A stretch of DNA of 54,361 nt, from positions 1-54,361 of the IMG/VR virus record IMGVR_UViG_3300022074_000053. One strand, given 5' to 3'. Below are positions 2,198 through 49,544 of this stretch, piece by piece; the stretch's first letter is position 1, and each line of letters starts with the position of its first letter. Origin of the DNA: a virus. Taxonomy: Duplodnaviria > Caudoviricetes. A program made the translations under genes and the position numbers. A model generated the notes under the pieces. The model had not been told where the DNA came from, made no database searches, and saw nothing but the letters and a program-made list of their open reading frames with translations.

Positions 2198-2295
2198 TGC
2201 GTAACTATACCCACTCTATTCTTGGATATAAAAATTTGAGGCCATGTATCATGAATAATATGTATGACCTTATAAGAAGTATCAGACGTAATCAT
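2194..2295 (-). CDS. 33-aa small protein upstream of psbD
   Basis: Manual translation [33 protein letters not shown]; resembles small ORFs I recall upstream of cyanophage psbD; overlaps gcvP stop. Confidence 0.5.
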
Positions 2296-4765
2296 TCATC
2301 TCTACCTGACAAGAACAAACTAAATTGCGATCTCCATACACATTATCAATCCTTGCTACAGCAGGCCAAAACTTTTCTTCCTGCTCCATAGGATACGCTG
2401 CCTCTTGGCGAGTATAACTACGATCCCATTCTTCAGAAGAAACACACTTTGCGGTATGTGGTGCATTCTTTAGTAGATCCGGATTGGTATCAATTTCATG
2501 ACGAATTTGTTTCATAGCATCTACAAATCTCTTGAGTTCATCAAATGATTCACTTTCAGTTGGTTCAACCATAATTGTTCCTGAAACAGGCCAACTTAGT
2601 GTTGGTGCATGAAATCCATAATCCATCAGACGCTTTGCAACATCCTCAGCAGTTACTTGTTTAAAGGGGCGAATATCTAGAATACATTCATGCGCTACTC
2701 TATTATTAGGACCACGATAAAGAACTGGAAAATAATCCTCAAGTTGATCTGCTAACCAATTGGCATTCAGTAAAGCAACCTCAGTGGCACTACGAAGACC
2801 GTCAGCGCCCATCATGCGGATATACATCCAAGGTATAGGAAGAATGCTTGCGCTCCCGTAAGGAGCAGCAGAGATATGTTGTGGTACAAATGGAATCAAA
2901 TGTTTTCCAACACCAATAGGACCAACTCCAGGACCACCGCCACCATGAGGGATACAGAAGGTCTTATGTAGATTAAGGTGACAAACATCAACACCATACT
3001 GACCAGGTTGAGAAAGACCAACCTGTGCATTTAAATTAGCACCATCCATGTATACTTGTCCACCAAACTCATGAACAATCTCGCAAATTTCACGAATGCC
3101 AGGTTCAAATACACCGTGTGTTGATGGATATGTAACCATAATACAAGCAAGGTTCTCTGCATTTGTAGATGCTTTCTTACTAAGATCATCAAGATCAATA
3201 TCTCCGTTGTCCTTACACTTAATAGCAACAACTTTCATTCCTGCCATTACAGAACTTGCAGGATTAGTTCCATGAGCACTAGTTGGAATCAAACATACAT
3301 TACGATGAGAATCTCCCCTACTTTTGTGATATGCACGAATAGTTAATAGACCAGCATACTCACCCTGAGAACCAGCATTTGGTTGTAAAAACATACCATC
3401 AAATCCAGTGATGGAGCATAACCAAACTTCAAGATTATGAATCAATTCAAGATATCCACGAACTTCATCTTCTGGAGCAAAAGGATGAATGTTACCAAAC
3501 TCTTCCCAACTAACTGGAATAAGTTCTGCTGCGGCATTAAGTTTCATCGTACAACTACCAAGAGGAATCATACCATCAACCAAACTAAAATCTTTTCTAG
3601 CAAGACGATAAATGTATCGCATCAAATCAGTTTCACTATGGTAGCGATTGAATACTTCTTGCTGTAACCATGGTTTTTCTCTAAGAGGAACACTATCAAT
3701 CGTAAAGATCTCATTAGCAATTCTTTCTAATCCCTCAGATCCATAATACACCGCATAAAAACCTGCCATAACTGCTAGAAGTGCTTGCGCCGTACAGATA
3801 TTACTGGTTGCCTTATCCCTACGAATGTGCTGCTCTCTAGTCTGTAGAGCAAGTCTCAGTGCCTTATTTCCCTCCTTATCTACAGACTGACCTACAATAC
3901 GACCAGGAATCTTACGCTGAAACTTTTCAATCGTAGCAAAGTATGCAGCATGAGGTCCACCATTACCCATAGGTATGCCAAATCGTTGACAGCTACCAAC
4001 AGCAATATCAGCACCAATCTCACCAACAGGTTTCATTAGAACTTGAAGGAATGGATCAACTGCAGCAGTTACCAAGACATCATATTCTTTAGCAGTGTAA
4101 ATGATACTAGTTGGATCCCAAAGTTCACCATCATTACCAGGTAACTGAATCAAAATACCAAAAGTATTTTCAAAAGATACATGACTTTGAAAATCACATA
4201 CTTCAACTTCAATGCCTAAAGGTTCTGCTCTAGTTTGAATAACCGAAAGAGTTTGTGGAAATACATTCTTATCAACGATAAATTTATTTCTCCCCTTTGC
4301 TGCACCATAACTCATAATCATCGCTTCTGCAGCAGCAGTTCCTTCATCTAGTAATGAAGCATTAGCAATAGGTAGTCCGGTCAACTCTGTGATAAGAGTT
4401 TGAAAGTTGAATAATCCTTCCAGTCTTCCCTGAGATATCTCTGCTTGATACGGTGTATACGATGTATACCATGCAGGATTTTCAAATACGTTTCTTTGAA
4501 TAACTGGAGGGCAAAAAGTTTCATAATATCCACGTTCACTTCGATTACTAACGATATTTTTATCTGCAATTACACGAAGTTCGGATAATGCTTTCTTCTC
4601 ATCACAACCTTGAGGAATACCTTTAAGTGCTTCCTTATCGATCAATATAGATTTAGGAACGATTTGATCGACGAGTTCATCTAAATTTGAAAGACCCAGA
4701 TCTTCAAGCATCCGAGTTTGCTGATTAATTGATGGACCAATGTGACGACCGATAAATTCTGACAT
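2282..4765 (-). CDS. gcvP: glycine dehydrogenase (decarboxylating), glycine cleavage P protein, compact form
   Basis: [53 protein letters not shown]-lysine motif [19 protein letters not shown]-terminal GDRNLVCSC; start moved to MSEFIGRH. Confidence 0.97.
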
Positions 4766-4787
4766 TTTTTTTCTAACGGACTTCAAT

Positions 4788-4813
4788 AAAAAAAGAGACC
4801 CGGAGGTCTCTTT
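4788..4813 (-). terminator. intrinsic terminator after psbA
   Basis: AAAGAGACC-TCCG-GGTCTCTTT followed by T run on the minus strand. Confidence 0.8.
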
Positions 4814-4842
4814 ATAATACACTTTATGAACTTAAAAGTCAA
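4814..4842 (-). promoter_or_regulatory. sigma70-like promoter of gcvP (TTGACT-17-TATTAT)
   Basis: -35 box contains the psbA TGA stop; 17-bp spacer. Confidence 0.65.
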
Positions 4843-5915
4843 CCAATGCTAGGTGCGGTGAGTGCCACAGGAGTGGACTCAGCAGCAGCAAGATCAAGGG
4901 GGAAGTTGTGTGCGTTACGCTCATGCATAACTTCCATACCAAGACCAGCACGATTGAGTACGTCCGCCCAGGTGTTGATCACTTTGCCTTGGGACTCAAC
5001 AATCGACTGATTGAAGTTGAATCCGTTAAGGTTGAATGCCATGGTGCTAACACCAAGAGCAGTGAACCAGATACCGACAACAGGCCACGCAGCGAGGAAG
5101 AAGTGCAGAGAACGTGAGTTGTTAAAGGATGCATACTGGAAGATCAAACGACCGAAGTAACCGTGTGCTGCGACGATGTTGTAGGTCTCTTCTTCTTGAC
5201 CGAACTTGTAACCATAGTTCTGGGACTCAGTTTCAGTGGTTTCACGAACCAGCGAAGAAGTAACCAGACTTCCATGCATAGCAGAGAAAAGAGATCCACC
5301 GAATACCCCAGCAACACCGAGCATGTGGAACGGGTGCATAAGGATATTGTGTTCTGCTTGGAATACAAGCATATAGTTAAAAGTGCCAGAAATACCAAGA
5401 GGCATAGCATCGGAGAAACTACCTTGACCGAAAGGATAAACGAGGAATACAGCAGAAGCAGCAGCGACAGGTGCGCTGTAGGCAACGCAGATCCAAGGAC
5501 GCATACCCAGGCGGTAGGAGAGTTCCCACTCACGACCCATGTAGGCGTAGATGCCGATGAGGAAGTGGAAAATTACAAGTTGGAAAGGTCCACCGTTATA
5601 CAACCACTCGTCGAGCGATGCGGCTTCCCAAATAGGATAGAAGTGAAGACCAATTGCGTTGGAAGAGGGAACAACTGCACCAGAGATGATGTTGTTACCG
5701 TACATGAGTGAACCAGCGACAGGTTCACGGATGCCATCGATGTCCACAGGAGGAGCAGCGACGAATGCTACGACGAAACAGATGGTTGCTGCCAACAGAG
5801 TTGGAATCATCAGAACGCCGAACCAACCGACATAGAGGCGGTTATTGGTGGAAGTTACCCACTCGCAGAAATTATCCCAAGTGGATGATTGTTGTCTTGA
5901 AAGAGTTGTAGCCAT
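4839..5915 (-). CDS. psbA: photosystem II D1 protein
   Basis: [10 protein letters not shown] ... [23 protein letters not shown]; viral-type RETTETESQ loop; uninterrupted; start moved to MATTLSRQ. Confidence 0.99.
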
Positions 5916-5934
5916 TTTCGTAAAAGGGTTATGT

Positions 5935-6030
5935 ATGAGTGCGGGGAACACCGGGTAGAATATTCCTCAGACACCCTCCGTCTGAGGTATTAGAGACGTG
6001 ATTTAGACTCCCTATAGGTCTCGGTTTGAG
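5935..6030 (-). ncRNA. structured psbA 5' leader, PhotoRC-II-like RNA motif
   Basis: Hairpin CCTCAGAC-GGAGGGT-GTCTGAGG (5965-5987) plus GAGAC/GTCTC stem; position matches PhotoRC-II; family named from memory. Confidence 0.7.
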
Positions 6031-6068
6031 GAGAGTTGCGTTACATTTCGTAACCTTCAACACTATGT

Positions 6069-6097
6069 ATAATAGTTCGGTTCCCCGTATTTGTCAA
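6069..6097 (-). promoter_or_regulatory. sigma70-like promoter of psbA (TTGACA-17-TATTAT)
   Basis: Consensus -35, 17-bp spacer. Confidence 0.75.
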
Positions 6098-6110
6098 CAA
6101 GTATTTTTAC

Positions 6111-8501
6111 TCATACTTTCCAGATGGTATCACAGTAATCCTGAATTGAACGGTCTGATGAGAAGAAACCAGATTTAGCGATATTAATAAGAGACTTTCG
6201 ATTCCATTCCTCACGGTTACCCCAGGTTGTGTCTACAACACTCTGAGCGCGACAATAATCACTAAAGTCAGCACATACACAGAAAGGATCTTTCTCTATA
6301 AGATTGGACATTAAATCAGTGAATGAATTCTTTTCGCCATTTGAGAAATGACCTGATTTAATTAATTGAATCGCTTCAAATAAACAACCACTCATATGAT
6401 ACTGAGGATCGTATCCATCTTTCCACAGTTGCTGTATTTCTTCTTCAGTCTTACCGAATAGGAAGAAATTTTCTTCACCGACGAGTTCTCTAATCTCAAC
6501 ATTAGCACCATCTAATGTTCCAATAGTTAAAGCGCCGTTCATCTGAAACTTCATGTTTCCAGTACCAGATGCTTCCTTACCTGCGGTAGAAATCTGTTCG
6601 GATAAATCAGCAGCAGGATAAACCTTCTCCCCCAACTTAACACTATAGTTTGGTAAGAATACAATTCTCAACTTACCATTCATATCAGGATCTGAATTGA
6701 TGGTTTCAGCAACGTTACAAATAAATCTAATGATTTCTTTCGCCATATAATATCCAGGTGCTGCCTTACCACCAAAGATTACTGTCCTAGGTACAACGTA
6801 ATCGTCTTTATGATTTTTGATATACACATACCTAGAAACCACCCATAAAGCAAGGAGATGCTGTCGTTTGTATTCGTGAATTCTCTTCACCTGAACGTCA
6901 AACATGCTTGATGGATCAACGGAAACACCAAGAGTCTTCTGTATGTATTGTGCTAGTTTATGCTTACCAATCAGTTTTGTAGCGCCAATCTTTTCAAGTA
7001 ACATGGAATCATCAACATAATTTTCCAAGTTACCCAAAAGACTCATATTAGAAACCCAATCAGTCCCCACATATTCATTAAGGACCTCAGCAAGTGCTGG
7101 ATTAGAATCTGCCAACCAACGACGTGGTGTTACACCATTAGTTACATTTGTAAACTTATGAGGCCAAAGATCATAGAACTCTGGCATCAAATTTTTGGTA
7201 ATAAGATCAGAATGAAGCGCAGCAACACCATTCACATGATGAGAACCAACTGTCGCAAGATGCGCCATTCTCACAGACTTGTTACCAGCTTCATCTATGA
7301 TTGACAATTTACGAAGAACTTGATCGTCACCAGGATACTTCATCCGTACAACTTGCAGGAATCGTGAATTGATTTCATAAATGATTTCAAGATGTCTTGG
7401 CAACAAACTCTCAAATAACTTGAGACTCCATTTCTCCAGTGCCTCTGGAAGCAGTGTATGGTTTGTATATGCGATAGACTTACTTGTAATATCCCATGCC
7501 AGATCCCAATCCATATGATGATCGTCAACTAGCAATCTCATCAATTCAGCAACAGCGATTGATGGGTGAGTGTCATTCAGTTGAACTTGATAATGTTCAT
7601 AGAACTCTTCAATAGGTAAGTTTCTTTCCTTGAGATTTCTAATCATATCCTGAAGAGAAGCACTTACAAAGAAGAACTGTTGTTTCAAACGAAGTTCTTT
7701 ACCTTGATCTGTTTCATCGTTAGGGTAAAGAATCTTAGAAATCGTTTCAGATCTTACACTATTCTCTACAGAACCAATATAATCACCGATATTAAAAGCG
7801 TAAAAATCGAATACATCTATTGCATCTGCTCTCCAGAGTCTAATTTTAGCGCAACTATCGACCTTATATCCTGCCTGAAGAACGTCGTAAGGAACAGCAA
7901 CCACATACTTGTCTGGAACCCAACGCACTCTAGAATCATATTCAGATAGTTCATAGTGCTCTACCTTACCACCAAATCCAACCATAACAGATTCATCAGG
8001 ATAACAAAGTTCCCATGGCCAATCCCCATGTAACCAATTATCAGTAACTTCTACCTGTTGATTGTCGCGGATTGTTTGTTTAAAAATACCATACTTATAT
8101 CTAATACCATATCCAGTGGCAGGAACTCTAAGTGTTGCCATGGATTCCATATAACAAGCAGCGAGTCTACCTAAACCACCATTACCTAGTCCAGGTTCTT
8201 CTGATTGCTCAAGAATCTCATCTAAGGTATATCCAAATTTAGAAACCGCATCCTCTGCTTCTTTGCGAATATCTAAATTAAGAAGATTGTTGCTTAATTG
8301 CGGACCAATCAAAAATTCTGCTGATAGATATGCGATTTCTTTCCGATGAGATTTTTCTACCAGATGATTATCCATCATCTTATCTCTCACTGCGTAACAC
8401 AATGCCGTATATACATCATGAGCTGTGGTATTATGAGAACTCTTTCCCAAAGTATAATGGAGACGTTCTTTCAATCTGTCACTAATTTCGTTTTGTACCA
8501 T
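6111..8501 (-). CDS. glgP: glycogen/alpha-glucan phosphorylase (GT35)
   Basis: EPGLGNGGLGRLAAC, QLNDTHP, YTNHTLLPEALE, VNGVAALH, QVKRIHEYKRQ, PLP site EASGTGNMKF..NGALTIGTLDGAN, FSSDRSI; start moved to MVQNEI. Confidence 0.98.
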   Translation of the reverse strand: MVQNEISDRLKERLHYTLGKSSHNTTAHDVYTALCYAVRDKMMDNHLVEKSHRKEIAYLSAEFLIGPQLSNNLLNLDIRKEAEDAVSKFGYTLDEILEQSEEPGLGNGGLGRLAACYMESMATLRVPATGYGIRYKYGIFKQTIRDNQQVEVTDNWLHGDWPWELCYPDESVMVGFGGKVEHYELSEYDSRVRWVPDKYVVAVPYDVLQAGYKVDSCAKIRLWRADAIDVFDFYAFNIGDYIGSVENSVRSETISKILYPNDETDQGKELRLKQQFFFVSASLQDMIRNLKERNLPIEEFYEHYQVQLNDTHPSIAVAELMRLLVDDHHMDWDLAWDITSKSIAYTNHTLLPEALEKWSLKLFESLLPRHLEIIYEINSRFLQVVRMKYPGDDQVLRKLSIIDEAGNKSVRMAHLATVGSHHVNGVAALHSDLITKNLMPEFYDLWPHKFTNVTNGVTPRRWLADSNPALAEVLNEYVGTDWVSNMSLLGNLENYVDDSMLLEKIGATKLIGKHKLAQYIQKTLGVSVDPSSMFDVQVKRIHEYKRQHLLALWVVSRYVYIKNHKDDYVVPRTVIFGGKAAPGYYMAKEIIRFICNVAETINSDPDMNGKLRIVFLPNYSVKLGEKVYPAADLSEQISTAGKEASGTGNMKFQMNGALTIGTLDGANVEIRELVGEENFFLFGKTEEEIQQLWKDGYDPQYHMSGCLFEAIQLIKSGHFSNGEKNSFTDLMSNLIEKDPFCVCADFSDYCRAQSVVDTTWGNREEWNRKSLINIAKSGFFSSDRSIQDYCDTIWKV

Positions 8502-8504
8502 ATG

Positions 8505-8526
8505 AAAAAAGGGCATTGCTGCCCTT
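8505..8526 (-). terminator. intrinsic terminator of the hli cluster
   Basis: AAGGGCA-GCAA-TGCCCTT plus T run. Confidence 0.75.
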
Positions 8527-8528
8527 AT

Positions 8529-8556
8529 ATTATATTCTATTTTATTTAACCGTCAA
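8529..8556 (-). promoter_or_regulatory. sigma70-like promoter of glgP (TTGACG-16-TATAAT)
   Basis: -35 box contains upstream ORF stop; consensus -10. Confidence 0.6.
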
Positions 8557-8687
8557 ATATGAGATGCCGGCATTTGTGCGGGAATCATCATACCACCATC
8601 CATATCGTCATCGTCATCGGCATTGATATCAGAAATCAAAGCAGCGAAGACAAATCCGCCTATCATACAAGTGGCAAGAAAAAGCAT
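8553..8687 (-). CDS. 44-aa membrane peptide with acidic DDDDDMDGGMM tail
   Basis: Manual translation MLFLATCMIGGFVFAALISDINADDDDDMDGGMMIPAQMPASHI; TGATG-coupled to hli. Confidence 0.65.
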   Translation of the reverse strand: MLFLATCMIGGFVFAALISDINADDDDDMDGGMMIPAQMPASHI

Positions 8688-8794
8688 CACCAAATACCTG
8701 GAATGATTTGCCCTGTTACGGCATAAGCACCCATCGCGGCAACGATACCGATCATGGCTGCAAGTCCATTAATACGTTCTGCGTTTTGGTTCAT
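8687..8794 (-). CDS. hli: high-light inducible protein (short type)
   Basis: Manual translation MNQNAERINGLAAMIGIVAAMGAYAVTGQIIPGIW; AExxNG and TGQIIPG motifs. Confidence 0.93.
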   Translation of the reverse strand: MNQNAERINGLAAMIGIVAAMGAYAVTGQIIPGIW

Positions 8795-8940
8795 TGTTGT
8801 TCCTCCAAAGTTTTGTTAGTGATGATGATCTTTTGACCATCGTGAGTAAATTGTAATTCGTCGTCAGGATGCCACAATAACTCTTCATACATATCGTCAA
8901 GTTTTTGCATATCCTGATAAAGTGCGTCTGGATTTGGCAT
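8791..8940 (-). CDS. 49-aa hypothetical protein
   Basis: Manual translation MPNPDALYQDMQKLDDMYEELLWHPDDELQF...; ATGA overlap with hli. Confidence 0.65.
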   Translation of the reverse strand: MPNPDALYQDMQKLDDMYEELLWHPDDELQFTHDGQKIIITNKTLEEQQ

Positions 8941-8966
8941 ATAAGTCTGTTTATCTGACGTATATA

Positions 8967-9188
8967 TTATCCAGGGAGCTCCAAATAAAACTTAGATTGA
9001 TCGCTAGGAGAATTCTCATAAATTGATGAATCTCCATATTGTTTGTGGTCTTTGTATCCAACCATACGCCCTTTAGTATTCTGAAGAGCAGGCATGAATA
9101 CGATAAAAAAGAATACTCCTGGGGCACCAATCAAAAGGGCACCACCAATAACATAGTAAGTAAGAATTTCAAGAAGGGAGTTTTCCAT
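8967..9188 (-). CDS. hypothetical membrane protein
   Basis: 73-aa ORF with one TM helix, operon-coupled. Confidence 0.65.
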   Translation of the reverse strand: MENSLLEILTYYVIGGALLIGAPGVFFFIVFMPALQNTKGRMVGYKDHKQYGDSSIYENSPSDQSKFYLELPG

Positions 9189-9759: not shown

Positions 9760-10548
9760 TTATTTCGCTTCAAATCCAGGTGGAAGTCTACCAGCATAAG
9801 GATTATATTCAAACATATCATTCCAATTTACATCTGGAGATTGATTTCTCCAAAACTGCCAAAGACCTTCATGACTACTTTTATGGAAGGCATCAATATG
9901 AATATCATGAATATCAGATCCCAATTCAATCTTATAAAGAAATAAAGGGATAGCAAAAGTATTACCAGAGTTATAAATTAAATCATCTGCTACAGCACGA
10001 GGTTTCATACCCTGGTCAAGTTTGTACTTATCACCACGACAATGAAGGTCAACTAACTTTTGAGCATGTCTCCTAGTAATCAAATAACAAGCAGTAGAGA
10101 AGTCATTGACATATCTCTTATGAAGTTGAACTGTTATTGAAGCAGGATTTATTATGGCAAGTTGAACAACATCATAATCATAAGGAATCTTTGAATAAAA
10201 ATCTTTCCAAGTAAATCCCCAGTGAAATACATTTGATATATCACAATCATCTTCCATCATTAGAAGACAAGGTTCATCTGTCTCCAAAAACATCTTAAGT
10301 GCTTTTAGATGAGAAGTAACACAACCAACTTCTCCCGATGTCATTTGATCAGGATATCTACCTTTTAGTATTTCTCCCAAATCATTGTCACCTCTACCAT
10401 CATAAGCAGAAATACGTTGATAGTTTTCTATCTGCCAATACTTAAATTGCTCTTCCATAAACTTCCAACGTTCTGGTTTATCATCTAAGTTGATAACATA
10501 TATCGGAGGAAGTCCTTTTAGTTTATATACCGCTTTGTTTTTATCCAT
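9760..10548 (-). CDS. glycosyltransferase family 25
   Basis: YVINLD..PER, RISAYDG, GEVGCVTSH, MEDD motifs. Confidence 0.88.
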   Translation of the reverse strand: MDKNKAVYKLKGLPPIYVINLDDKPERWKFMEEQFKYWQIENYQRISAYDGRGDNDLGEILKGRYPDQMTSGEVGCVTSHLKALKMFLETDEPCLLMMEDDCDISNVFHWGFTWKDFYSKIPYDYDVVQLAIINPASITVQLHKRYVNDFSTACYLITRRHAQKLVDLHCRGDKYKLDQGMKPRAVADDLIYNSGNTFAIPLFLYKIELGSDIHDIHIDAFHKSSHEGLWQFWRNQSPDVNWNDMFEYNPYAGRLPPGFEAK

Positions 10549-20879: not shown

Positions 20880-21075
20880 CTTTCATGCACGCCACTTGTT
20901 CTTTTACAGGAAACAAGAAACCTGGCGGGATAATCCCATCCGCACCACCTTATTTTAGGAATAAGGAAACCAAAGAGGGTCTAATGACTCCACCACCTTA
21001 TTTTAGGAATAAGGAAACCCGAGGGTCAATTGACCATCCCGACCAGGGCAGGTTTCAGGTCACTCCGCGACCGCG
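20880..21075 (-). ncRNA. structured RNA with three tandem hairpin units, manA-like motif
   Basis: Two identical 29-bp units and one degenerate unit, each a hairpin followed by TGGYG; upstream of gmd; family named from memory. Confidence 0.65.
20943..21019. repeat. perfect 29-bp direct repeat (20943-20971, 20991-21019)
   Basis: CACCACCTTATTTTAGGAATAAGGAAACC twice; degenerate copy at 20891-20922. Confidence 0.95.
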
Positions 21076-21620: not shown

Positions 21621-21694
21621 TCGGGGAGACAGGATTTGAACCTGCGACCTATGCTTCCCAAAAGCACCGCGCTACCAAACTGCGCTACACCCCG
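21621..21694 (-). tRNA. tRNA-Pro(TGG)
   Basis: Cloverleaf CGGGGTG...TAGCGCAG..GGTAGCGC, anticodon loop TT-TGG-GA, GGTTCAAATCC. Confidence 0.95.
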
Positions 21695-21954: not shown

Positions 21955-22034
21955 CCTCTATACCTCCCCGGCCATGTAAGTTGCATTCCTACCAGCAATA
22001 ATGTAATAAACACAAATATGAATAATAAAGTCAT
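21951..22034 (-). CDS. 27-aa membrane peptide
   Basis: MTLLFIFVFITLLLVGMQLTWPGRYRG; ATGA overlaps on both sides. Confidence 0.5.
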   Translation of the reverse strand: MTLLFIFVFITLLLVGMQLTWPGRYRG

Positions 22035-23386
22035 GCTGGATAATCCCAATTTGTAATCTCATCTACTTTAGATGTAGGACCCCATGTTCCTGCTTCATAT
22101 ATGTGAGGAATTGTATTGATGAGACATTCTTCACCAGTACAAAGAAGATCATCTACAATTCTCCAGGATTCCATCACTTCATCAGAGTGGACAAAGTGTG
22201 ATTGATTTCCACTGATCGCATCATATAAAAGTTTCTCATACCCATCAATCGCTCTTTCCTGGGGATAGGCGTGTGTGAGGGTAGCGAGTTCCAAATTGTC
22301 AGAAAGACCAGGAGATTTGATATCCATACGGATGTCCAGATGAGGATTAGGTTGAAGACGCATAACGATGCGATCATTTGTTTCCCCTTCATAAAGTTTT
22401 AGCGGTGGTGATTTAAATTTAATAACAACTTCCACACATCCATAGGGCATACATTTGCCTGTCATTACGCGAAAAGGAACTCCTTCCCAACGCCAGTTAT
22501 CGACATATAAAGAACCAGCGACGAAGGTAGGAGTACTGCTGAGAGGATCAACGCCCTCTTCAGTGCGGTAAGTATTGTATTGTCCAAAGATTGTATCCTC
22601 CCCTAAACGAGTGGCAGCAAGAACTTTAACTTTTTCTCTGCGAATTTCTTTCGCATCCATTCTGCATGGCGCTTCCATAGCAATGAGAGAAAGCACCTGA
22701 AGAACATGATTTTGTAGCATGTCCCTAACAGCACCAGCAGTGTCATAGTATTGAGATCGTCCATCACAACTGATTGTTTCAGTTGCGAAGATTTGAACTT
22801 CTTCTATGTAATTACGGTTCCATAAAGGTTCCAACAAAATATTGCTAAACCTAGTAGCAAGTATGTTATTAACAGTATCTTTGCCAAGATAATGGTCAAT
22901 GCGATAAACCTGTTTTTCGCGTAAATGTCGCTCAACCACAGACTGTAAATGATGAGCAGATTGATAATCGTACCCAAAGGGTTTCTCAATAACCAAACGC
23001 GATTTTTCGGGGTCATCAAGTCTTCCTGCTTCTTTGAGATTGATGATAGCATTCTCATATCGTTCTGGAGGTACAGATAAAAAGTAAGTGTTATCATCCA
23101 GATACCCCGGCAAATGATTCAGAGTTTCTGGTAAAGATAAATCTGTGGAAACATAATCTAAATGCCATAGAAAATCTTCAGGATAATCATCAGGATTAGC
23201 AAGAGATTCTTTCCATTGATCTGGAGTTCTTTCACGTCTAGCAGATCCAGTAATAACAAAATTCTCTGGAAGTAAGTCTTTCTTCCAGAGATTATAAAGT
23301 GCAGGAATTAGTTTTTTCTTACACAGATCTCCAGTCGCACCAAAGATAACAATCCCAGAACTAGTGGGCCGTTCCATTTCCATCAT
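22031..23386 (-). CDS. zwf: glucose-6-phosphate 1-dehydrogenase
   Basis: IFGATGDL, EKPFG, RIDHYLGK, RDMLQNH, RWEGVPF; start moved to MMEMERP. Confidence 0.98.
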   Translation of the reverse strand: MMEMERPTSSGIVIFGATGDLCKKKLIPALYNLWKKDLLPENFVITGSARRERTPDQWKESLANPDDYPEDFLWHLDYVSTDLSLPETLNHLPGYLDDNTYFLSVPPERYENAIINLKEAGRLDDPEKSRLVIEKPFGYDYQSAHHLQSVVERHLREKQVYRIDHYLGKDTVNNILATRFSNILLEPLWNRNYIEEVQIFATETISCDGRSQYYDTAGAVRDMLQNHVLQVLSLIAMEAPCRMDAKEIRREKVKVLAATRLGEDTIFGQYNTYRTEEGVDPLSSTPTFVAGSLYVDNWRWEGVPFRVMTGKCMPYGCVEVVIKFKSPPLKLYEGETNDRIVMRLQPNPHLDIRMDIKSPGLSDNLELATLTHAYPQERAIDGYEKLLYDAISGNQSHFVHSDEVMESWRIVDDLLCTGEECLINTIPHIYEAGTWGPTSKVDEITNWDYPA

Positions 23387-23492
23387 ATTTGTCTGATTCG
23401 TAGTAGTTATTTTCACCTTTTCGTATCCCAAAATGTATCGTAAATATCACAAACGGGATCGCGATCCATTTAAGAACATCAGCGAACATCAT
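23361..23492 (-). CDS. ndhP: NDH-1 complex subunit NdhP-like peptide
   Basis: Manual translation MMFADVLKWIAIPFVIFTIHFGIRKGENNYYESDKYDGNGTAH; one TM plus FG..YYxSDxYxGNGxAH tail typical of NdhP. Confidence 0.8.
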   Translation of the reverse strand: MMFADVLKWIAIPFVIFTIHFGIRKGENNYYESDKYDGNGTAH

Positions 23493-24516
23493 GACCTCCA
23501 AACATTGCTCTCATACCGTTCAGAACCTTGGCAGTGAAAGCACCCAAACGGCGCGACTCAAAGCGTGCCCACAACGCGCCGCTGATGACAGGAGCGGGTA
23601 CGCCAAGATCCACAGCAGCGTGAACAGTCCAACGACCCTCACCACTGTCTGATACTCCTCCATCGAACTTGCTAAGTTCTCTATCACCCCTAAAAACATC
23701 AGCGGTAAGATCGAGTAACCAAGAACCAACCACAGAACCACGACGCCATAACTCAGCCACCTCAGAACAGTCAATATCATATTGATAATCCCTCGGATTC
23801 TCCATCGGAGCAACCTCAGCATCGCCCTCTTTAACGTAAGCTGACCCAGCATTAGCTTCATGCAGGATATTAAATCCTTCTGCGTATGCTTGCATGATTC
23901 CATACTCAACTCCATTATGAACCATCTTTACAAAGTGACCTGCACCTGGTGGTCCACAATGTAACCAACCATACTCAGCAGATGTTGCGCTTGAGTAAGG
24001 GTCTGTGCGGGGTGCAGAGGCAATACCTGGTGCGAGTGCGCGAAAGATTGGAGAACAAACGGATACTGCAGTATCTGTACCACCAACCATAAGACAGTAT
24101 CCACGCTCCAGACCGTAAACACCACCACTAGTACCGCAGTCAAGATACGAGATGCCAAGTTTAGATAACCTTTCTGCCCTTCTGCGAGAGTCCTTAAAAT
24201 TACTATTGCCGTGATCAATAATAATATCTCCCTCACCACAAAACTGTAGTAACTCATTAAGTGTTTCCTCTACTAATTCTGCGGGTATAACAAGTTGAAA
24301 AATTCCTGGTGCTTTACCAACCAATCCTTCTTGATTGTGTACTACTTGAACAAGGCTTTCCAGAGAAGAGGCAATTCCACTGACATAACCTGCTTTATAC
24401 GCTTCTTGAGCTTTTTCATAGTTCCTCCTGTAACCCCAAACTTCAATGCCTTCTTTCATCATGCGACGAGACATACCCTCGCCCATGCGACCAAGACCAA
24501 TCAATCCTACTTTCAT
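23479..24516 (-). CDS. gnd: 6-phosphogluconate dehydrogenase (short type)
   Basis: GLIGLGRMG, DHGNS, GTSGG, GHFVKMVHNGVEYG, DSGEGRW, FGGH. Confidence 0.97.
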   Translation of the reverse strand: MKVGLIGLGRMGEGMSRRMMKEGIEVWGYRRNYEKAQEAYKAGYVSGIASSLESLVQVVHNQEGLVGKAPGIFQLVIPAELVEETLNELLQFCGEGDIIIDHGNSNFKDSRRRAERLSKLGISYLDCGTSGGVYGLERGYCLMVGGTDTAVSVCSPIFRALAPGIASAPRTDPYSSATSAEYGWLHCGPPGAGHFVKMVHNGVEYGIMQAYAEGFNILHEANAGSAYVKEGDAEVAPMENPRDYQYDIDCSEVAELWRRGSVVGSWLLDLTADVFRGDRELSKFDGGVSDSGEGRWTVHAAVDLGVPAPVISGALWARFESRRLGAFTAKVLNGMRAMFGGHDVR

Positions 24517-26369: not shown

Positions 26370-26441
26370 TGCAAGAAGAGGGAATCGAACCCCCGACCGC
26401 CTCGGTGTAAACGAGATGCTCTACCGCTGAGCTATTCTTGC
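26370..26441 (-). tRNA. tRNA-Val(TAC)
   Basis: Cloverleaf; anticodon loop TT-TAC-AC; GGTTCGATTCC. Confidence 0.95.
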
Positions 26442-26862: not shown

Positions 26863-27828
26863 TTACTTAATTGTGTCAACGGCAGCAAGAGATTTCTGCC
26901 GAAGATCCTCTGGAAGAGGTACATATCCCAAAGAATCTGAAACCACCTGCGACTTTTCGCTCAGCATATAACGAAGAGTTTCCTTAACTCCAGGTCTAGA
27001 GTCAGGATAAGCAAGAATCCAAGTCAGAGATACGATTGGATAAGCATTCGCACCCACAGGGTTAGGATCTTCCCCACGAAGTTTATCGTCTAGAACGATC
27101 TTGGCAAGTCCAGCAGCGGAGGTTTCACTGTTTGCTTTCACAAAGTTGCCTGCCTTGTTTTGTAGAGCAACCTGTTGAAACTTACCACCGTTCAAGTAAC
27201 CATAGTTCAGATAACCGATAGCACCTTGAGTGTTCTTGATAGTACCAGCAACACCAGCGTTACCTTTACCACCAACACCAACAGGCCACTTCACAGACTT
27301 ACCAGTGCCGACCTTTGCTTTCCACTCAGGAGAGAAGGCAGACAGGGAGTTGGTGAATCCTTTGGTGGTGCCAGAACCATCGGAACGCCACACGGTGACG
27401 ATCTGCTTATCAGCACAACCGAAGGTGCTCCAGTTTGTAATCTTACCAAGGAAGACATCAGCAAGTTGAGTCTGCGTCATCTTGGCATCACAACCAGGTA
27501 GATTGTAAGCAGGGACGATAGCGCCGCCAGTCATAGGAATATGAACCATGGGCAGTTTCTGCTTAGCATCACTCACAGCACCATCGCTGGCACCAAAGTC
27601 AACAGTCTTAGCAGTATACTGACGAACACCAGCACCACTACCAACTGCTTGATAGTTCACTTGATTTCCAGTCTCTTTATTAAAGGATGCGAACCAGGAA
27701 TTATACAAAGGAGCAGGGAAAGTCGCACCTGCTGCATTCAGTTTGAATGTATCTTTCTTTTCCTCAGCACCACAAGCAATAAGAACAGGTGCAGTCAATG
27801 TAGCAATAAAAAATTCTTTGAGTTTCAT
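26863..27828 (-). CDS. pstS: phosphate ABC transporter substrate-binding protein
   Basis: Lipobox LIAC, GATFPAPLY, YQAVGSGAG, DFGASD, RSDGSGTT, AYPI. Confidence 0.97.
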   Translation of the reverse strand: MKLKEFFIATLTAPVLIACGAEEKKDTFKLNAAGATFPAPLYNSWFASFNKETGNQVNYQAVGSGAGVRQYTAKTVDFGASDGAVSDAKQKLPMVHIPMTGGAIVPAYNLPGCDAKMTQTQLADVFLGKITNWSTFGCADKQIVTVWRSDGSGTTKGFTNSLSAFSPEWKAKVGTGKSVKWPVGVGGKGNAGVAGTIKNTQGAIGYLNYGYLNGGKFQQVALQNKAGNFVKANSETSAAGLAKIVLDDKLRGEDPNPVGANAYPIVSLTWILAYPDSRPGVKETLRYMLSEKSQVVSDSLGYVPLPEDLRQKSLAAVDTIK

Positions 27829-27863
27829 CTTTTTTGTTAGATAAACCTTGGTATATATTAGCA

Positions 27864-27882
27864 CTTAATTTAAATTTAACCA
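27864..27882. promoter_or_regulatory. putative Pho box
   Basis: CTTAATTT-AAA-TTTAACCA fits cyanobacterial PyTTAAPyPy(T/A)-N3 repeats, just upstream of pstS. Confidence 0.55.
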
Positions 27883-28467: not shown

Positions 28468-28539
28468 AGCGGGTGATCGGGTTCGAACCGACGACATTCA
28501 GCTTGGAAGGCTGACGTTCTACCACTGAACTACACCCGC
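28468..28539 (-). tRNA. tRNA-Gly(TCC)
   Basis: GCGGGTG acceptor, anticodon loop CT-TCC-AA, GGTTCGAACCC. Confidence 0.95.
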
Positions 28540-28616: not shown

Positions 28617-28688
28617 AGCCTCTGACAAGATTTGAACTTGCGACCTGAGCTTTACAAAAGCCCTGCTCTACCACTGAGCTACGGAGGC
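28617..28688 (-). tRNA. tRNA-Thr(TGT)
   Basis: Cloverleaf, anticodon loop TT-TGT-AA, AGTTCAAATCT. Confidence 0.95.
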
Positions 28689-28857: not shown

Positions 28858-28931
<74 letters not shown>

Positions 28932-35703: not shown

Positions 35704-35875
35704 CTCCTATGTATTCTAGTGACATCACATCAATATCTTTAACATCAGGATTCATCCATTCTCTAAACTCACAGTGAAGTGAATAAGCATCATCGATATC
35801 ATCTTCACAGAGAGTGTGAATTCTATCTATAACGTAATTATGTACTTGAATTAGATTCTCTTTTAAAGTTACCAT
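35681..35875 (-). CDS. hypothetical protein
   Basis: 64-aa acidic ORF, operon context. Confidence 0.55.
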   Translation of the reverse strand: MVTLKENLIQVHNYVIDRIHTLCEDDIDDAYSLHCEFREWMNPDVKDIDVMSLEYIGDEDGGNI

Positions 35876-36287
35876 AGTCTTTACGCATATAGCGACCTAG
35901 AATGTTGCTATTATAGTATGCCGGAGAACCGTCGTCAAGTGACTCAGATAATACATTATTGAGAAACAATTGTTTTGTTTCTTCAAAGTTACAAGTTCCT
36001 TTTGTTGAGTGTAAACTTAATATTTCTCTACTGAAGAACTCTTTACCATACTTTTTTATATCCTCCTTTAATTCTGGACAAGAACCATAATACTTTTTCC
36101 AATCTGATTCTTGTTTTACTTTTCGTTTCTTCCCTGGTGGTTTTCTAAAAGACCAAAAATACTTTCGCCCAATGTATTGTCGTTGGTTGGATTTATTGGT
36201 AATGAGATAAACAAAACCAAAGTTATCCCCAACATCATCACTATCAAATACTCGTTTCAAGTATAACCAAGGATTTTCATAACTCAT
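35838..36287 (-). CDS. GIY-YIG family endonuclease-like protein
   Basis: GFVYLITN...YIGRK, YYGS, YN; promoter TTGACA-17-TAGAGT at 36336-36364. Confidence 0.75.
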   Translation of the reverse strand: MSYENPWLYLKRVFDSDDVGDNFGFVYLITNKSNQRQYIGRKYFWSFRKPPGKKRKVKQESDWKKYYGSCPELKEDIKKYGKEFFSREILSLHSTKGTCNFEETKQLFLNNVLSESLDDGSPAYYNSNILGRYMRKDYGNFKRESNSST

Positions 36288-37735: not shown

Positions 37736-39154
37736 CTATTTCTTTTTTGGTTTTTTTCTAAGTCTCGATAGAACTTTATCTGCCAAAGAAGTTCCGGCAG
37801 TATATCCAGCGACTCCTCCACCAATCGTTCCAACAGGTCCAGCAAAACTACCAAGACTAGATCCTACAGCACCACCTAACCACCCAGCAGCGGTTCTAAA
37901 ACCAGATTTGAGACCAGCTTTAAGTCTACTATCTCCAGATGCTCTATTTTTTCTATAATCTAAGAAAGTATCAAGACCAGCACCAACAGCACCTAAACCT
38001 TTAGCAGCTTTACCTGCGTACTTACCAAGATTTCTTTCAACTGCTTTATCAATAGTCTTTTGTGTTACAGGTGTAGGTTTTCCTTTAAGGAGATTTTTTT
38101 CTGGTGTAATATCTTTTACTTTAACTGGTTCAACATCAATAACAGAGTTTTTAGGATTTACTAAACTCTTAAAATTCTTTTTAGATAATGCCTTTTGAGA
38201 GGATGTAGTTTTTCCTACTGATAATCCCCCAACACTTTTAATAAATGATTTATTTCCTCTAGCGAGAGTAACTTCAGATCCTGGTTTGGGTTTATTTTTG
38301 AAAGAGTATCCAGATCTATTAGATTTTTTTACATCATTGCCTACAAGATTTTTAATTACTTTATCAAGATCAGCACCTCTTGTTTTAGAAATATCTCTTG
38401 TAGCATCCGCTTGAGCACGAAATCTTGTGCGTTGACCTTTCGTAGATGACCTCCCAACCATCTCTGGTTTAGCACCAGATGCTTTGAGACCCTGTGCATC
38501 TACAAAATCTTGAGTTACCTTGCGACCTTGATCCTGCATACTACGGATGTACTCATTAGCAGGAGTCTGCGGTACAGTTTTAACTGGGGTGCCTGGAAAG
38601 GGATCTGGTATAGAAGGTTTCCCAGATTTCGCTCGCTTAGTGACATTTTTAAATGGTCTAGCAGGTGCCGGAATCTTCGACTTAAATGGATCAGGAATAC
38701 CTTGCTTTACAGTTCTCTTCTGCCTTACAGAACGATCAACATTGGGGTTTGATTCATCTGCTTTCAGACCACCAGACTTAGAACCCGAGAATCCTCTTCT
38801 TGCTGCTATATCAGACTTTACTCTGGCAGTAGCACCACTCCTATCTCCAGGGAACGACAAGGTACCTCTAGCAAGACTTCCAGTGGTTTTGCCACCAGTT
38901 GCTCCTTTTACCCTCTGAGCGCTTCTAAACTTCGCTGCCTGCTTGGAAACATCTGCCTGCTTCACTGCCGTTGTCTTGGGCGTTTTAGGTGCCTCAGGGT
39001 TTGCTACCTTAGGAGGATTAGAAGGATCTGAAAACTTCTTATCAATTTTTTTCCGATTACTTAGATCCAATGGATCTCTATCTCCTGGAGCAGGGGATGC
39101 TACAGCAGTATTACCTTTTTTTCTTTCTAGTATAAAATTACTAAACGACTTCAT
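37736..39154 (-). CDS. putative internal virion protein, basic, with glycine-zipper tail
   Basis: Start MKSFSNFILE below late promoter TATAAATA (39181-39188); GWLGGAVGSSLG..GGGVAG. Confidence 0.7.
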   Translation of the reverse strand: MKSFSNFILERKKGNTAVASPAPGDRDPLDLSNRKKIDKKFSDPSNPPKVANPEAPKTPKTTAVKQADVSKQAAKFRSAQRVKGATGGKTTGSLARGTLSFPGDRSGATARVKSDIAARRGFSGSKSGGLKADESNPNVDRSVRQKRTVKQGIPDPFKSKIPAPARPFKNVTKRAKSGKPSIPDPFPGTPVKTVPQTPANEYIRSMQDQGRKVTQDFVDAQGLKASGAKPEMVGRSSTKGQRTRFRAQADATRDISKTRGADLDKVIKNLVGNDVKKSNRSGYSFKNKPKPGSEVTLARGNKSFIKSVGGLSVGKTTSSQKALSKKNFKSLVNPKNSVIDVEPVKVKDITPEKNLLKGKPTPVTQKTIDKAVERNLGKYAGKAAKGLGAVGAGLDTFLDYRKNRASGDSRLKAGLKSGFRTAAGWLGGAVGSSLGSFAGPVGTIGGGVAGYTAGTSLADKVLSRLRKKPKKK

Positions 39155-39187
39155 TCCGCTACCGCGTTCCAGTATAAGAATATTTAT

Positions 39188-39218
39188 AAAAAAAGGGAGA
39201 GGACTAATCCTCTCCCTT
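39188..39218 (-). terminator. intrinsic terminator after the nrd operon
   Basis: AAGGGAGAGGA-TTAG-TCCTCTCCCTT plus T run. Confidence 0.85.
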
Positions 39219-39344
39219 GAATGCTTCATATCCATCATATTCTCCAAACATATAGGAATCAGATAATGCCGCCTCCCTATATGCTTGTAGTGATTTATCC
39301 GTTAACTCAAAGTTGGAATCCTGAGAAGGTGTCTTTTTTGACAT
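39204..39344 (-). CDS. 46-aa hypothetical protein
   Basis: MSKKTPSQ...AYREAALSDSYMFGEYDGY; overlaps nrdB end. Confidence 0.45.
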   Translation of the reverse strand: MSKKTPSQDSNFELTDKSLQAYREAALSDSYMFGEYDGYEAFKGED

Positions 39345-40491
39345 CTTGTTTGATCCCTCCAACGATGTAAGACTCAACCTCAGTCTCCTGAGGAGCGACT
39401 TGAAGACCCTTCGACGAAATCCAATGTTCCGTCCAGGGGAGTGGGTTATTCTTTGCGGGAATGTCATAGATAGGTTTTAATCCAATTGCCTTCATTCTAC
39501 GATTGGCAACCCATTCAACATATTGTTGAAGAAGTTTATCATTTAGACCAATCATAGATCCATCTTTAAACAAATACTCTGCCCAAAGTTTTTCCTGATT
39601 AACACAGTTCTCAAAGGCATTGAGCAACCACTGTTGCTCTTCTTTGAAAATTTGTTTCATCTCAGGATCATCACCCTGCTTCCACTTATTCAAGATATTT
39701 TGAGTGATGGCAAGGTGTGTATTTTCATCTCTAGCAATTAATGAGATGATTTTTGCAGATCCCTCCATGAGTTTGAGTTCGCCAAACGCAAAACTGCAAG
39801 CGAAACTGACATAAAAGCGAATACCTTCAAGAATATTAACGTTTGCAATTGCTCTGAAGAGTTTGCGCTTGAGTTCATATCGGGATTCTAAGGCGTAAGG
39901 AACTTGTTCTAATGCGTGTTGCCATTCGTTAGAGTTATCCCATTGATGGGCAGCATTCAGAAAATCATTATATGCTTGAGTAACACTGGTAGCACGCTCT
40001 ACAATACGATCATCTGTCAAAATGTGGTCAAATACATCTGAAGGATCGGCATATACATTTTTGATGATATGTGTATATGAACGACTGTGGATCATTTCCA
40101 TGAATCCCCAGACTTCCATACATGCTTCTAATTCAGGTAATGAGCAGTAAGGGATAAAAGCCATCCCAGGACCGCGCCCTTGTACAGAATCCAGCATGAT
40201 CTGGTATTTAAGATTGCTGGTAAAAATGTGCTTTTGCTCTGGACGTAATGTCTGATAATCACTGCGATCCTTTTGTAAGGAGACCTCTTCAGGTCTCCAG
40301 AAAAAACCTAATTGCTGTGTTGTTAATTTGTCGAAGACTGGATACTTGTAAGAATCATATCTTTGGATTCCTAGTGGTTTACCGAAGAACATCGGTTGTT
40401 TTTTAGTGTCAACTACTTCTGAGTTGAATACGGTCATGGAGTCAACCATTGGTTTCTCCTCTTTGTTCGTCTTAAATCTTACAAGACTCAC
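39307..40491 (-). CDS. nrdB: ribonucleotide reductase class Ia beta subunit
   Basis: FWRPEEV, LDSVQ, EMIHSRSY, LEGIRFY, ARDENTH, APQETE. Confidence 0.98.
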   Translation of the reverse strand: MSLVRFKTNKEEKPMVDSMTVFNSEVVDTKKQPMFFGKPLGIQRYDSYKYPVFDKLTTQQLGFFWRPEEVSLQKDRSDYQTLRPEQKHIFTSNLKYQIMLDSVQGRGPGMAFIPYCSLPELEACMEVWGFMEMIHSRSYTHIIKNVYADPSDVFDHILTDDRIVERATSVTQAYNDFLNAAHQWDNSNEWQHALEQVPYALESRYELKRKLFRAIANVNILEGIRFYVSFACSFAFGELKLMEGSAKIISLIARDENTHLAITQNILNKWKQGDDPEMKQIFKEEQQWLLNAFENCVNQEKLWAEYLFKDGSMIGLNDKLLQQYVEWVANRRMKAIGLKPIYDIPAKNNPLPWTEHWISSKGLQVAPQETEVESYIVGGIKQDVKKDTFSGFQL

Positions 40492-42769: not shown

Positions 42770-43737
42770 ATCTTTTTCCAAATGTTGAATTTAACTTTTG
42801 CTTCTAAACCAGAATATGTATTTGATTCTATCATAGACATTACATCATGTCCAGCGATAATCATGTCATTGATATCTTTTTCTATGATACCGTTTGGCCA
42901 GATGACGACTTTTTGATTTCTGTCGATACATCTCTCAATTCTTCCAACAATTTCACGATTGCGGGGCTCGTTATCGTAAACAAGAATAATGTCGCTTCCC
43001 TCAAGATAACCCAAGTCACCATCACTACCACACAAAGCCACGCTATTGTTGATGAAAGTGCTGTCAAAGGGTCCTTCGACCACATAGATTGGTAGTTTTT
43101 CATCAATTGTTTCAAGTCCATAAATTTTCGGCGCTTCATCCTCTAACATCACGGTGATATATTTAACAGAGTTAGGAATTAGACTTCTACCCTGAAAACC
43201 AATAAGATTCTTACCCTTATCATACATTGGTATAATAATACGCGGTTCATCCCTATATGTGGAGTCAAACGTTTGTTTTTGTATATTTGTCCACTCTTTG
43301 AATTTATTAGTATAATAAAACTTTTCAGGATTAAGTTTTCTATCTTCCAAATATTTTCTAGCAACATCATTCTCAGATGCTTTAGGAATATCTAACTTTT
43401 TCTTGAATACTGGTTTCTTAAATTCAAAGACAGGTTCTTCGCTGACAAAATTTCTTCCTGTATGACCTTCCTTAAATTTCTCAAGAGTATACTGCTTATG
43501 AAGAGTAGTATCAAGTTTCTTGATAAAATTATTCAATGACAAACTAGCACCACAGTTGTGACACTTAAAGTTGGTATTGTTCTTCACAACATACATATAC
43601 CCACGACACTTATTCTTGTTCTTCTGTGAGTCTCCACAGATGGGGCAACGGAAGTTGTATAGGTCAGGTTTGACCTTCTTGAATTTTTGTAGGCGTGACG
43701 AAATTAATCCAACATACTTGGAATCAATTAGATCCAT
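42766..43737 (-). CDS. gp61: DNA primase (T4 gp61)
   Basis: CPICGDS..CHNC zinc finger, RIIIP, VEGPFDS, DNEPRN, KDINDM. Confidence 0.96.
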   Translation of the reverse strand: MDLIDSKYVGLISSRLQKFKKVKPDLYNFRCPICGDSQKNKNKCRGYMYVVKNNTNFKCHNCGASLSLNNFIKKLDTTLHKQYTLEKFKEGHTGRNFVSEEPVFEFKKPVFKKKLDIPKASENDVARKYLEDRKLNPEKFYYTNKFKEWTNIQKQTFDSTYRDEPRIIIPMYDKGKNLIGFQGRSLIPNSVKYITVMLEDEAPKIYGLETIDEKLPIYVVEGPFDSTFINNSVALCGSDGDLGYLEGSDIILVYDNEPRNREIVGRIERCIDRNQKVVIWPNGIIEKDINDMIIAGHDVMSMIESNTYSGLEAKVKFNIWKKI

Positions 43738-49471: not shown

Positions 49472-49544
49472 TGGAGTTAAGCGGACTCGAACCGCTGACA
49501 TCCTGCTTGCAAAGCAGGCGCTCTACCAACTGAGCTATAACCCC
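49472..49544 (-). tRNA. tRNA-Ala(TGC)
   Basis: GGGGTTA acceptor with G3:U70, anticodon loop TT-TGC-AA, GGTTCGAGTCC. Confidence 0.96.

Follow-up and report, generated by a model that had tools for sequence, protein, structure and literature searches.

Cyanophages are known to switch off the Calvin cycle and to steer carbon into the pentose phosphate pathway, and the source of glucose-6-phosphate during infection has so far been left to the host. The known carbon-redirection set of cyanophage auxiliary metabolic genes (AMGs) comprises cp12, talC, zwf and gnd (background section of PMC12801897), all of them host-derived central-carbon genes of T4-like cyanophages. A viral gene for glycogen synthase, glgA, has been reported from Pacific Ocean viromes, according to a passage of a review (PMC10452541). 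In a paraphrase of Waldbauer 2019, a passage of the same review states that host glycogen phosphorylase is still made during infection by S-SM1, and that homologues of this enzyme occur in phages or on fragments from viral metagenomes. Here we analyse a glycogen phosphorylase gene, glgP, in the IMG/VR virus record IMGVR_UViG_3300022074_000053. The window is the whole of that record, 54,361 bases, with an estimated completeness of 29%. It holds zwf and gnd of the known set together with glgP, whose product would act one level upstream of that set, on the storage polymer, and which is absent from the list in the background section cited above. Viral glgA, compared by its description, is likewise a glycogen-metabolism gene on marine viral sequences, but it belongs to a different family and works in the direction of synthesis.

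The closest relative in a cultured phage is ORF260 of S-SCSM2R (PQ898602.1), annotated as a 'carbohydrate phosphorylase', with 85.4% amino acid identity over 100% of the protein. Like the window, S-SCSM2R has a glycosyltransferase island, hli (high-light-inducible protein) and glgP, followed by psbA and psbD, and the two proteins fall in the same GlgP subclade. S-SCSM2R, however, carries GT24, kdsA/B and a 2-oxoglutarate (2OG)-oxygenase between glgP and psbA, whereas glgP of the window abuts the psbA leader; a further difference is the glycine dehydrogenase gene that lies between psbA and psbD in the window. In the main text of the paper on S-SCSM2R (PMC12801897; its supplements were outside the check), 'ORF260', 'carbohydrate phosphorylase', 'glycogen' and 'glgP' have no occurrence, and the passages on 'phosphorylase' concern mannosylglucose phosphorylase. 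The paper on S-SCSM1 makes no mention of glgP or glycogen phosphorylase. Across the full-text literature, subscription journals and supplements not being covered, no paper was found to describe a glgP encoded by a cyanophage in its main text; one match for glgP among viral AMGs was set aside, as it concerns community transcripts and not a phage gene.

An intact glgP gene in cyanomyovirus DNA

The glgP gene (Table 1) is one open frame, with 801 codons from its first ATG and 796 from a second ATG five codons further on, at 8501. The second ATG is likely to be the true start, because the first lies in a hairpin loop and glgP of the relatives begins after an equivalent hairpin; many relatives are likewise 796 residues long. 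The product matches Pfam PF00343 with 1038.2 bits (cut-off 27), its residues 92-801 covering positions 2-713 of the 713 in the profile. The top solved structure is 9wvu (976 bits, about 60% identity by eye), and human and rabbit muscle glycogen phosphorylases align over residues 10-801 with 809-811 bits. In these alignments the pyridoxal phosphate (PLP)-lysine block EASGTGNMKF, with K656, is the same as in 9wvu and in both muscle enzymes. K656 stands opposite the lysine with index 681 in the 843-residue rabbit chain 3zcp, which we take to be rabbit K680, the lysine of the PLP Schiff base. KRIHEYKRQ, the glycine-rich loop GLGNGGLGRLAAC, LNDTHP and TNGVTPRRW are all present and identical to those of the solved enzymes; we take the first to be the phosphate site, and the His of LNDTHP and the Asn of TNG to be sugar-binding residues. 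K544, R545, H547, Y549, K550, G113-G116, H317, N460 and the PLP-lysine block do not vary among 14 aligned phage copies. The full-length profile match, the PLP lysine and the residues of the phosphate and sugar sites place the protein in family GT35, in agreement with a sequence-only reading of the window, which had described an intact GlgP of about 796 residues with PLP and catalytic motifs. We predict that the protein is an alpha-1,4-glucan (glycogen) phosphorylase that depends on PLP and is competent in catalysis.

The window is DNA of a T4-like cyanomyovirus, not host DNA. Over nrdA, nrdB and the genes for primase-helicase and DNA polymerase, its right half is 76-79% identical in nucleotide sequence to S-SKS1, S-SM2 and other T4-like cyanophages (442 matching records), and the left half matches such phages in psbA, psbD, zwf and gnd (452 records). 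The G+C content of the glgP kilobases, 0.38-0.39, is the same as that of the surrounding phage DNA. We checked both ends of the gene for chimeric joins with Logan contigs from three runs (X1, X7 and X11), each of a different study; one of these runs may be the source sample. The psbA-glgP junction is crossed by contigs of X1 (5889-6818) and X11 (5858-7840) without mismatch and of X7 (5889-6822) with one mismatch, and the glgP-hli junction by contigs of X1 (7758-9122) and X7 (7317-9132) without mismatch. Both ends are thus bridged with at most one mismatch, which contradicts a chimera.

Contigs of X1 and X7 also join position 6074 to 9042, skipping 6075-9041 (glgP, the short hli-like open reading frame (ORF) and small ORFs). 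The joint may come from a related phage without the cassette, or may be a chance join; its shorter side has 22 letters, too few to claim a glgP-less variant at this site.

Distribution among phages

Relatives of the gene are rare in deposited phage genomes and common in uncultured ones. A tblastn search of 50,697 deposited phage records gave 22 with any GlgP match, and S-SCSM2R was the only cyanophage; the other 21 (below 60% identity) are enterobacterial records or unannotated human-faecal contigs. In IMG/VR, 215 of 218 candidate stretches encode a GlgP relative. Among the best 120 of 8000 scored protein-cluster matches, identities are 72-98% and lengths mostly 791-801 residues. Some of the relatives lie on contigs of 228-251 kb, and near-identical GlgP proteins were also seen on contigs of 481-483 kb. 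The sequence-only reading did not know glgP as a standard cyanophage AMG, and among cultured cyanophages it is not one. The novelty of the gene, on which that reading had not decided, is reduced by the 215 stretches, the S-SCSM2R annotation and the mention in the review.

We compared setting, integrity and selection over 82 copies, namely 80 fetched IMG/VR loci, the window and S-SCSM2R; ORFs of the 80 loci were called and clustered, and recurrent neighbours were named with PHROGs and Pfam. The gene was found in three settings. In the commonest (51 of 82 copies) the order is gp45-gp44-dam-gp62-regA-glgP-(phosphomannomutase-like)-hsp20-(purM)-gp43-uvsX. In the second (24 copies) glgP directly follows nrdA-nrdB, and in the third (six copies, including the window) it stands between the glycosyltransferase island with hli and psbA; one copy could not be classified. 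glgP thus lies amid regA, gp62, gp44, gp45, gp43, uvsX, nrdA and nrdB, as well as in a cultured phage, which locates it as a phage-borne AMG. Among cultured phages, P-SSM5 and P-SSM2 of Prochlorococcus are closest to the first setting, and Bellamy and S-SM2 of Synechococcus to the second, each time with a nucleotide identity of about 80%; none of these four gave a glgP match in the tblastn search.

The overlap of glgP with the end of regA in the regA-glgP-gp43 setting makes it probable that the gene is transcribed together with those for replication. In 20 of the 24 nrdA-nrdB-glgP loci a gene for a SegE-like endonuclease (cluster 9; for example L012:10412-10864) lies no more than three ORFs 3' of glgP. 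The settings are interleaved on the GlgP tree, so glgP has moved or been exchanged repeatedly, and it is possible that the SegE-like endonuclease has been a vehicle for its movement between phage genomes. The window carries a 503-residue ORF without a Pfam family right after nrdB, the place of glgP in those 24 loci.

Origin and selection

A search of bacterial contigs, one genome per species, gave at least 592 relatives among 600 candidate stretches. Among the matches listed, the closest cellular proteins are those of Prochlorococcus, Synechococcus and Cyanobium (57-65% identity), followed by those of unrelated phyla (at most 55%). We built a careful tree with IQ-TREE (LG+G4) from 38 rows: 14 of the 39 phage representatives, 19 picocyanobacteria and five others. 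The phages form one clade (100/100) with a stem branch of 0.28, and phages and picocyanobacteria together form one clade (100/100) against the other bacteria. A quick tree of 71 rows had the phage clade as sister to all picocyanobacteria; we dropped this placement, as a tree constrained to join the phages with the marine lineages scored higher by 18.4 log-likelihood units (p-AU 0.65). These trees point to a single origin of the phage proteins from picocyanobacterial GlgP. We name no particular donor, because the constrained tree scored better and the careful tree gives the phage clade no firm place, inside the picocyanobacterial proteins or beside them. On this evidence, glgP would have passed just once from a picocyanobacterium into a phage ancestral to a large group of T4-like cyanomyoviruses, and would then have come to occupy at least three genome positions.

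All 82 phage copies encode at least 780 residues. Of 3321 pairs, 2204 had 0.05 < dS < 1.5, the remaining pairs being too close or saturated; in these 2204 the ratio of nonsynonymous to synonymous changes (dN/dS; Nei-Gojobori, codon alignment) is 0.134 at the median and 0.24 at most. Phage glgP is kept under purifying selection. The gene is thus phage-borne, intact, host-derived and selected.

Loss of the host terminal peptides

The picocyanobacterial enzymes share the GT35 catalytic blocks with the phage proteins, and the identity given above extends over the whole length. The phage proteins, however, are shorter, mostly about 791-803 residues against mostly about 840-856 in hosts. As seen in an alignment of eight phage and seven cellular proteins, three host blocks are absent from all eight phage copies. 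Missing at the N terminus are about 25 residues that include a conserved Cys (around '..LRLPTPGC..'), within the protein 4-5 residues, and at the C terminus a peptide with one Cys, about 10-12 residues long ('..PVEITCDVR'). The phage proteins stop at a conserved ..IWK(V/I).

A C-terminal regulatory peptide is named as a distinctive trait of cyanobacterial GlgPs in a review (PMC12892837). In Synechocystis GlgP1, likewise a GT35 phosphorylase, a Cys837-Cys842 switch is reported in this peptide, the oxidised enzyme being active and the reduced, C837S and C-terminally truncated forms weakly active (Neumann et al., bioRxiv 2022.11.21.517384). This extension is absent from the phage protein, which ends at ..IWKV; the extension of the marine hosts has one Cys, unlike the pair in GlgP1. 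As both host terminal peptides are lost, the phage enzyme is probably outside whatever control these peptides exert, and may thus be free from this part of host regulation.

Fate of the glucose-1-phosphate

We lean towards a role in which phage GlgP, a competent enzyme captured once and kept by selection, feeds glucose-1-phosphate from host glycogen to phage Zwf, Gnd and NrdAB, the direction and timing of the flux being presumed, like the benefit at dusk or in darkness that the sequence-only reading had raised. During infection GlgP would use inorganic phosphate to release glucose-1-phosphate from host glycogen. A mutase, probably the host phosphoglucomutase in the lineage of the window, would convert this to glucose-6-phosphate, which phage Zwf and Gnd would oxidise to give NADPH and pentose phosphate for nucleotide synthesis via the ribonucleotide reductase NrdAB. 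In complete relatives phage CP12 and TalC would be part of the same reprogramming. As had been read from the sequence, zwf, gnd and nrdAB do share the window with glgP, all of them identified by Pfam profiles (Table 1). A profile search found zwf in four of five relatives' records, and cp12 and talC each in three of five, including both 100%-complete records and S-SCSM2R. A debranching or amylase-type enzyme (PF00128) was found in none of five records (the window and four relatives). In one relative, 35% complete, zwf matches in two adjacent frames (L166/L167; G003:C1:20467-20941, minus strand) that cover profile positions 1-93 and 105-183, which suggests a frameshift or a sequencing error.

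In some relatives the mutase may be a phage enzyme encoded beside glgP. Among the 55 loci with at least 900 nucleotides downstream of glgP, 16 have a gene for a 235-residue phosphomannomutase-like protein of the HAD family within three ORFs 3' of glgP (cluster 12; for example L075:10848-11555, plus strand). The protein has its best matches among eukaryote-type phosphomannomutases (104 bits) and a weak match to HAD alpha-phosphoglucomutase; the gene is called 'hypothetical protein' in P-TIM68, S-SSM7 and S-SSM6a. It may supply the mutase step or serve the synthesis of GDP-mannose.

Several observations weigh against the role that we favour. An alpha-phosphoglucomutase (PF02878) was found in none of five relatives' records, and the step from glucose-1-phosphate to glucose-6-phosphate is not phage-encoded in the lineage of the window. 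The best structural relatives of the phosphomannomutase-like protein are mannose-specific by name, and its gene is absent from S-SCSM2R and the two complete relatives (none of three). In S-SCSM2R the overlap of glgP with the GT24 gene, and a gene for UDP-glucose dehydrogenase in the vicinity, point to sugar-nucleotide use, and gene neighbourhood in the hyperplastic regions of T4-like phages is in any case weak functional evidence. Exact contigs over glgP in the oligo-dT RNA library X15, which give neither strand nor expression level, are only a hint of expression and may be carried-over DNA. Finally, Synechocystis GlgP1 without its C-terminal peptide falls to the activity of the reduced enzyme (bioRxiv 2022.11.21.517384); a trimmed enzyme is therefore not necessarily more active.

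A more far-reaching proposal is tentative, and we think it less likely than not. Many uncultured cyanomyoviruses might conduct a self-sufficient raid on glycogen, with a regulation-free GlgP core, in some lineages an adjacent HAD-type phosphohexomutase for the conversion of glucose-1-phosphate to glucose-6-phosphate, and Zwf, Gnd, TalC and CP12, to make deoxynucleoside triphosphates from stored carbon when photosynthesis is off, at night or in the deep euphotic zone; the SegE-like endonuclease that adjoins the cassette where it follows nrdB would aid its spread between phage genomes.

The glucose-1-phosphate could instead go mainly into sugar nucleotides (UDP-, ADP- or dTDP-glucose and derivatives) for the glycosyltransferase island, and serve remodelling of the host surface or glycosylation of the virion. 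The sequence-only reading had raised supply of the island. In the window glgP borders an island with GT25, epimerases, GT6, GT11 and FkbM methyltransferases, while the overlap with the GT24 gene of S-SCSM2R is 4 nucleotides and a gene for UDP-glucose 6-dehydrogenase lies 8 kb upstream. With its Gmd, wcaG RNA and GT11, however, the island of the window belongs to the GDP-mannose/GDP-fucose type, and GDP-mannose is not made from glucose-1-phosphate. In addition, the activating enzyme, a sugar-1-phosphate nucleotidyltransferase (PF00483), was found in none of five records (the window, S-SCSM2R, the two complete relatives and G004), and 75 of the 82 copies of glgP are in replication or nucleotide modules, away from a sugar island. 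This destination is plausible for the setting of the window and for S-SCSM2R, yet weaker than had been proposed, and we regard it as unlikely to be the main one.

Phosphorolysis yields a phosphorylated hexose without spending ATP, and glycogen could in this way supply glycolysis and respiration with fuel for ATP when photosynthesis is weak, at night or in deep water, with no special link to NADPH and deoxynucleotides. Such a general energy role would fit the plastoquinol-oxidase-like gene that adjoins gnd, and the commonest setting, whose nearest cultured relatives named above are phages of low-light Prochlorococcus. The downstream enzymes that the phages encode, however, belong to the oxidative branch of the pentose phosphate pathway (zwf, gnd and talC), with cp12 in addition; no glycolytic genes were seen in the annotated parts, and in the second setting glgP directly follows nrdA-nrdB. 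The energy role overlaps with the supply of Zwf and Gnd, and on its own it seems quite improbable.

It is very improbable that glgP is a functionless passenger, a recently captured host gene in decay: nothing specific speaks for it beyond the single cultured phage known to carry the gene, and against it stand the full-length copies, the low dN/dS, the invariant catalytic residues, a deep monophyletic clade and a G+C content like that of the rest of the window. Host DNA misjoined to phage DNA, for which one could cite the metagenomic and fragmentary nature of the record, is hardly credible in view of the contigs of three studies across both junctions, glgP flanked by phage core genes in a cultured phage and in 80 further IMG/VR loci, and host proteins that are only 57-65% identical and bear terminal peptides missing from the copy in the window.

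Flanking sequences and other genes

As had been read from the sequence, glgP stands directly upstream of psbA, which follows behind a PhotoRC-II RNA motif; PhotoRC-II is also annotated ahead of psbA in S-SCSM2R. This motif and the wcaG motif, which precedes the gene for GDP-mannose 4,6-dehydratase, are both known cis-regulatory RNA motifs. On the other side of glgP, the 35-residue ORF has a putative HLIP-like motif, recognised by eye; the 72-residue hli ORF beyond it had no match in a Pfam search.

Table 1. Features located in the window, with the evidence for each
Feature	Position	Strand	Evidence
Glycine-cleavage P-protein (glycine dehydrogenase), 846 residues, between psbD and psbA	2282..4822	-	Pfam PF02347, 524 bits; PF21478, 159 bits
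psbA (photosystem II D1)	4839..5951	-	Pfam PF00124, 299.9 bits
PhotoRC-II RNA motif, psbA leader, between glgP and psbA	5952..6048	-	Rfam RF01717, 72.1 bits (gathering score 39)
glgP, glycogen/alpha-1,4-glucan phosphorylase (GT35)	6111..8516	-	ORF calling, Pfam PF00343, PDB alignments
7-bp G+C-rich hairpin with T-run, spanning the first ATG of glgP	8509..8526	-	Fold -12.4 kcal/mol, z -1.77
sigma70-like promoter match TTGACG-16-TATAAT	8529..8556 (8556..8529)	-	Consensus scan, 11/12 positions
Short hli-like ORF, 35 residues, upstream of glgP	8687..8794	-	ORF call; HLIP-like motif by eye
hli (high-light-inducible protein), 72 residues	9464..9682	-	Clusters with S-SCSM2R_253 'high light inducible protein'
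GT25	9760..10548		Pfam
wcaG RNA motif, ahead of the GDP-mannose 4,6-dehydratase gene	20881..20974	-	Rfam, 96.8 bits
zwf (glucose-6-phosphate dehydrogenase)	22031..23431	-	Pfam PF02781, 293 bits; PF00479, 153 bits
gnd (6-phosphogluconate dehydrogenase)	23479..24516	-	Pfam PF03446, 118 bits; PF00393, 75 bits
pstS (phosphate-binding protein)	26863..27864	-	Pfam PF12849, 131.7 bits
SegE-like GIY-YIG homing endonuclease	35838..36287	-	PF19835, 184 bits
503-residue ORF, right after nrdB	37736..39247	-	No Pfam family
nrdB (ribonucleotide reductase small subunit)	39307..40491	-	Pfam PF00268, 183 bits
nrdA (ribonucleotide reductase large subunit, ATP-cone)	40472..42781	-	Pfam PF02867, 439 bits; PF00317; PF03477
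tRNA genes (six)	21621..21694, 26370..26441, 28468..28539, 28617..28688, 28858..28931, 49472..49544	all -	Rfam

A promoter of its own had also been assigned to glgP. The sigma70-like match exists, its -35 hexamer overlapping the stop codon of an upstream 46-residue ORF, but it is a match to a consensus only, and such sites are not in excess in the region (17 against 14.4 ± 3.6 in shuffles). It is kept in the relative L005 and not in L001 or L056. The hairpin with its T-run is terminator-like, and may serve the upstream hli operon; 12 of 200 shuffles fold equally well, so it is not statistically compelling by itself. A comparable hairpin with a T-run lies upstream of glgP in L001, L056, L006, L010 and L012. 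We noted also that the word TAAATA, which we take to resemble a late promoter word of the T4 type, recurs, perhaps by chance, 20-45 nucleotides before the start of glgP in the window and in L005, L006, L010, L012, L001 and L056, often immediately before the hairpin and T-run.

Further genes of the window confirmed by profiles are psbD, those for the glycine-cleavage P-protein, an epimerase, GT6, GT11 and FkbM methyltransferases, and those for a GDP-fucose-synthase-like epimerase, GDP-mannose dehydratase, a 2OG-oxygenase and a nuclease. The glycine dehydrogenase is known in phages, being 68-69% identical to annotated copies of the Prochlorococcus phages P-HM1, P-HM2 and MED4-213. Homologues occur close to glgP in seven of the 80 IMG/VR loci, and the window protein is shorter than the full copies in L070, L073 and L077 (917-923 residues).

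Discussion

The above results add glgP to the host-derived genes of central carbon metabolism that are known as AMGs of cyanomyoviruses. As an addition to that set it is logical more than surprising, yet widespread and selected. As far as could be searched, there is no description of its one deep phage clade, of its three settings in the genome or of the loss of the peptides at both ends of the protein. This loss is a natural experiment on the regulation of cyanobacterial GlgP. As a carrier of glgP, S-SCSM2R, is in culture and infects standard strains, the idea that phages draw on host glycogen is directly testable. A widespread, selected and phage-owned glycogen phosphorylase would put the storage polymer itself under viral control, which bears on how infections run at dusk, at night or at depth, and on the share of their stored carbon that the most abundant phototrophs of the ocean give up to the making of viruses.

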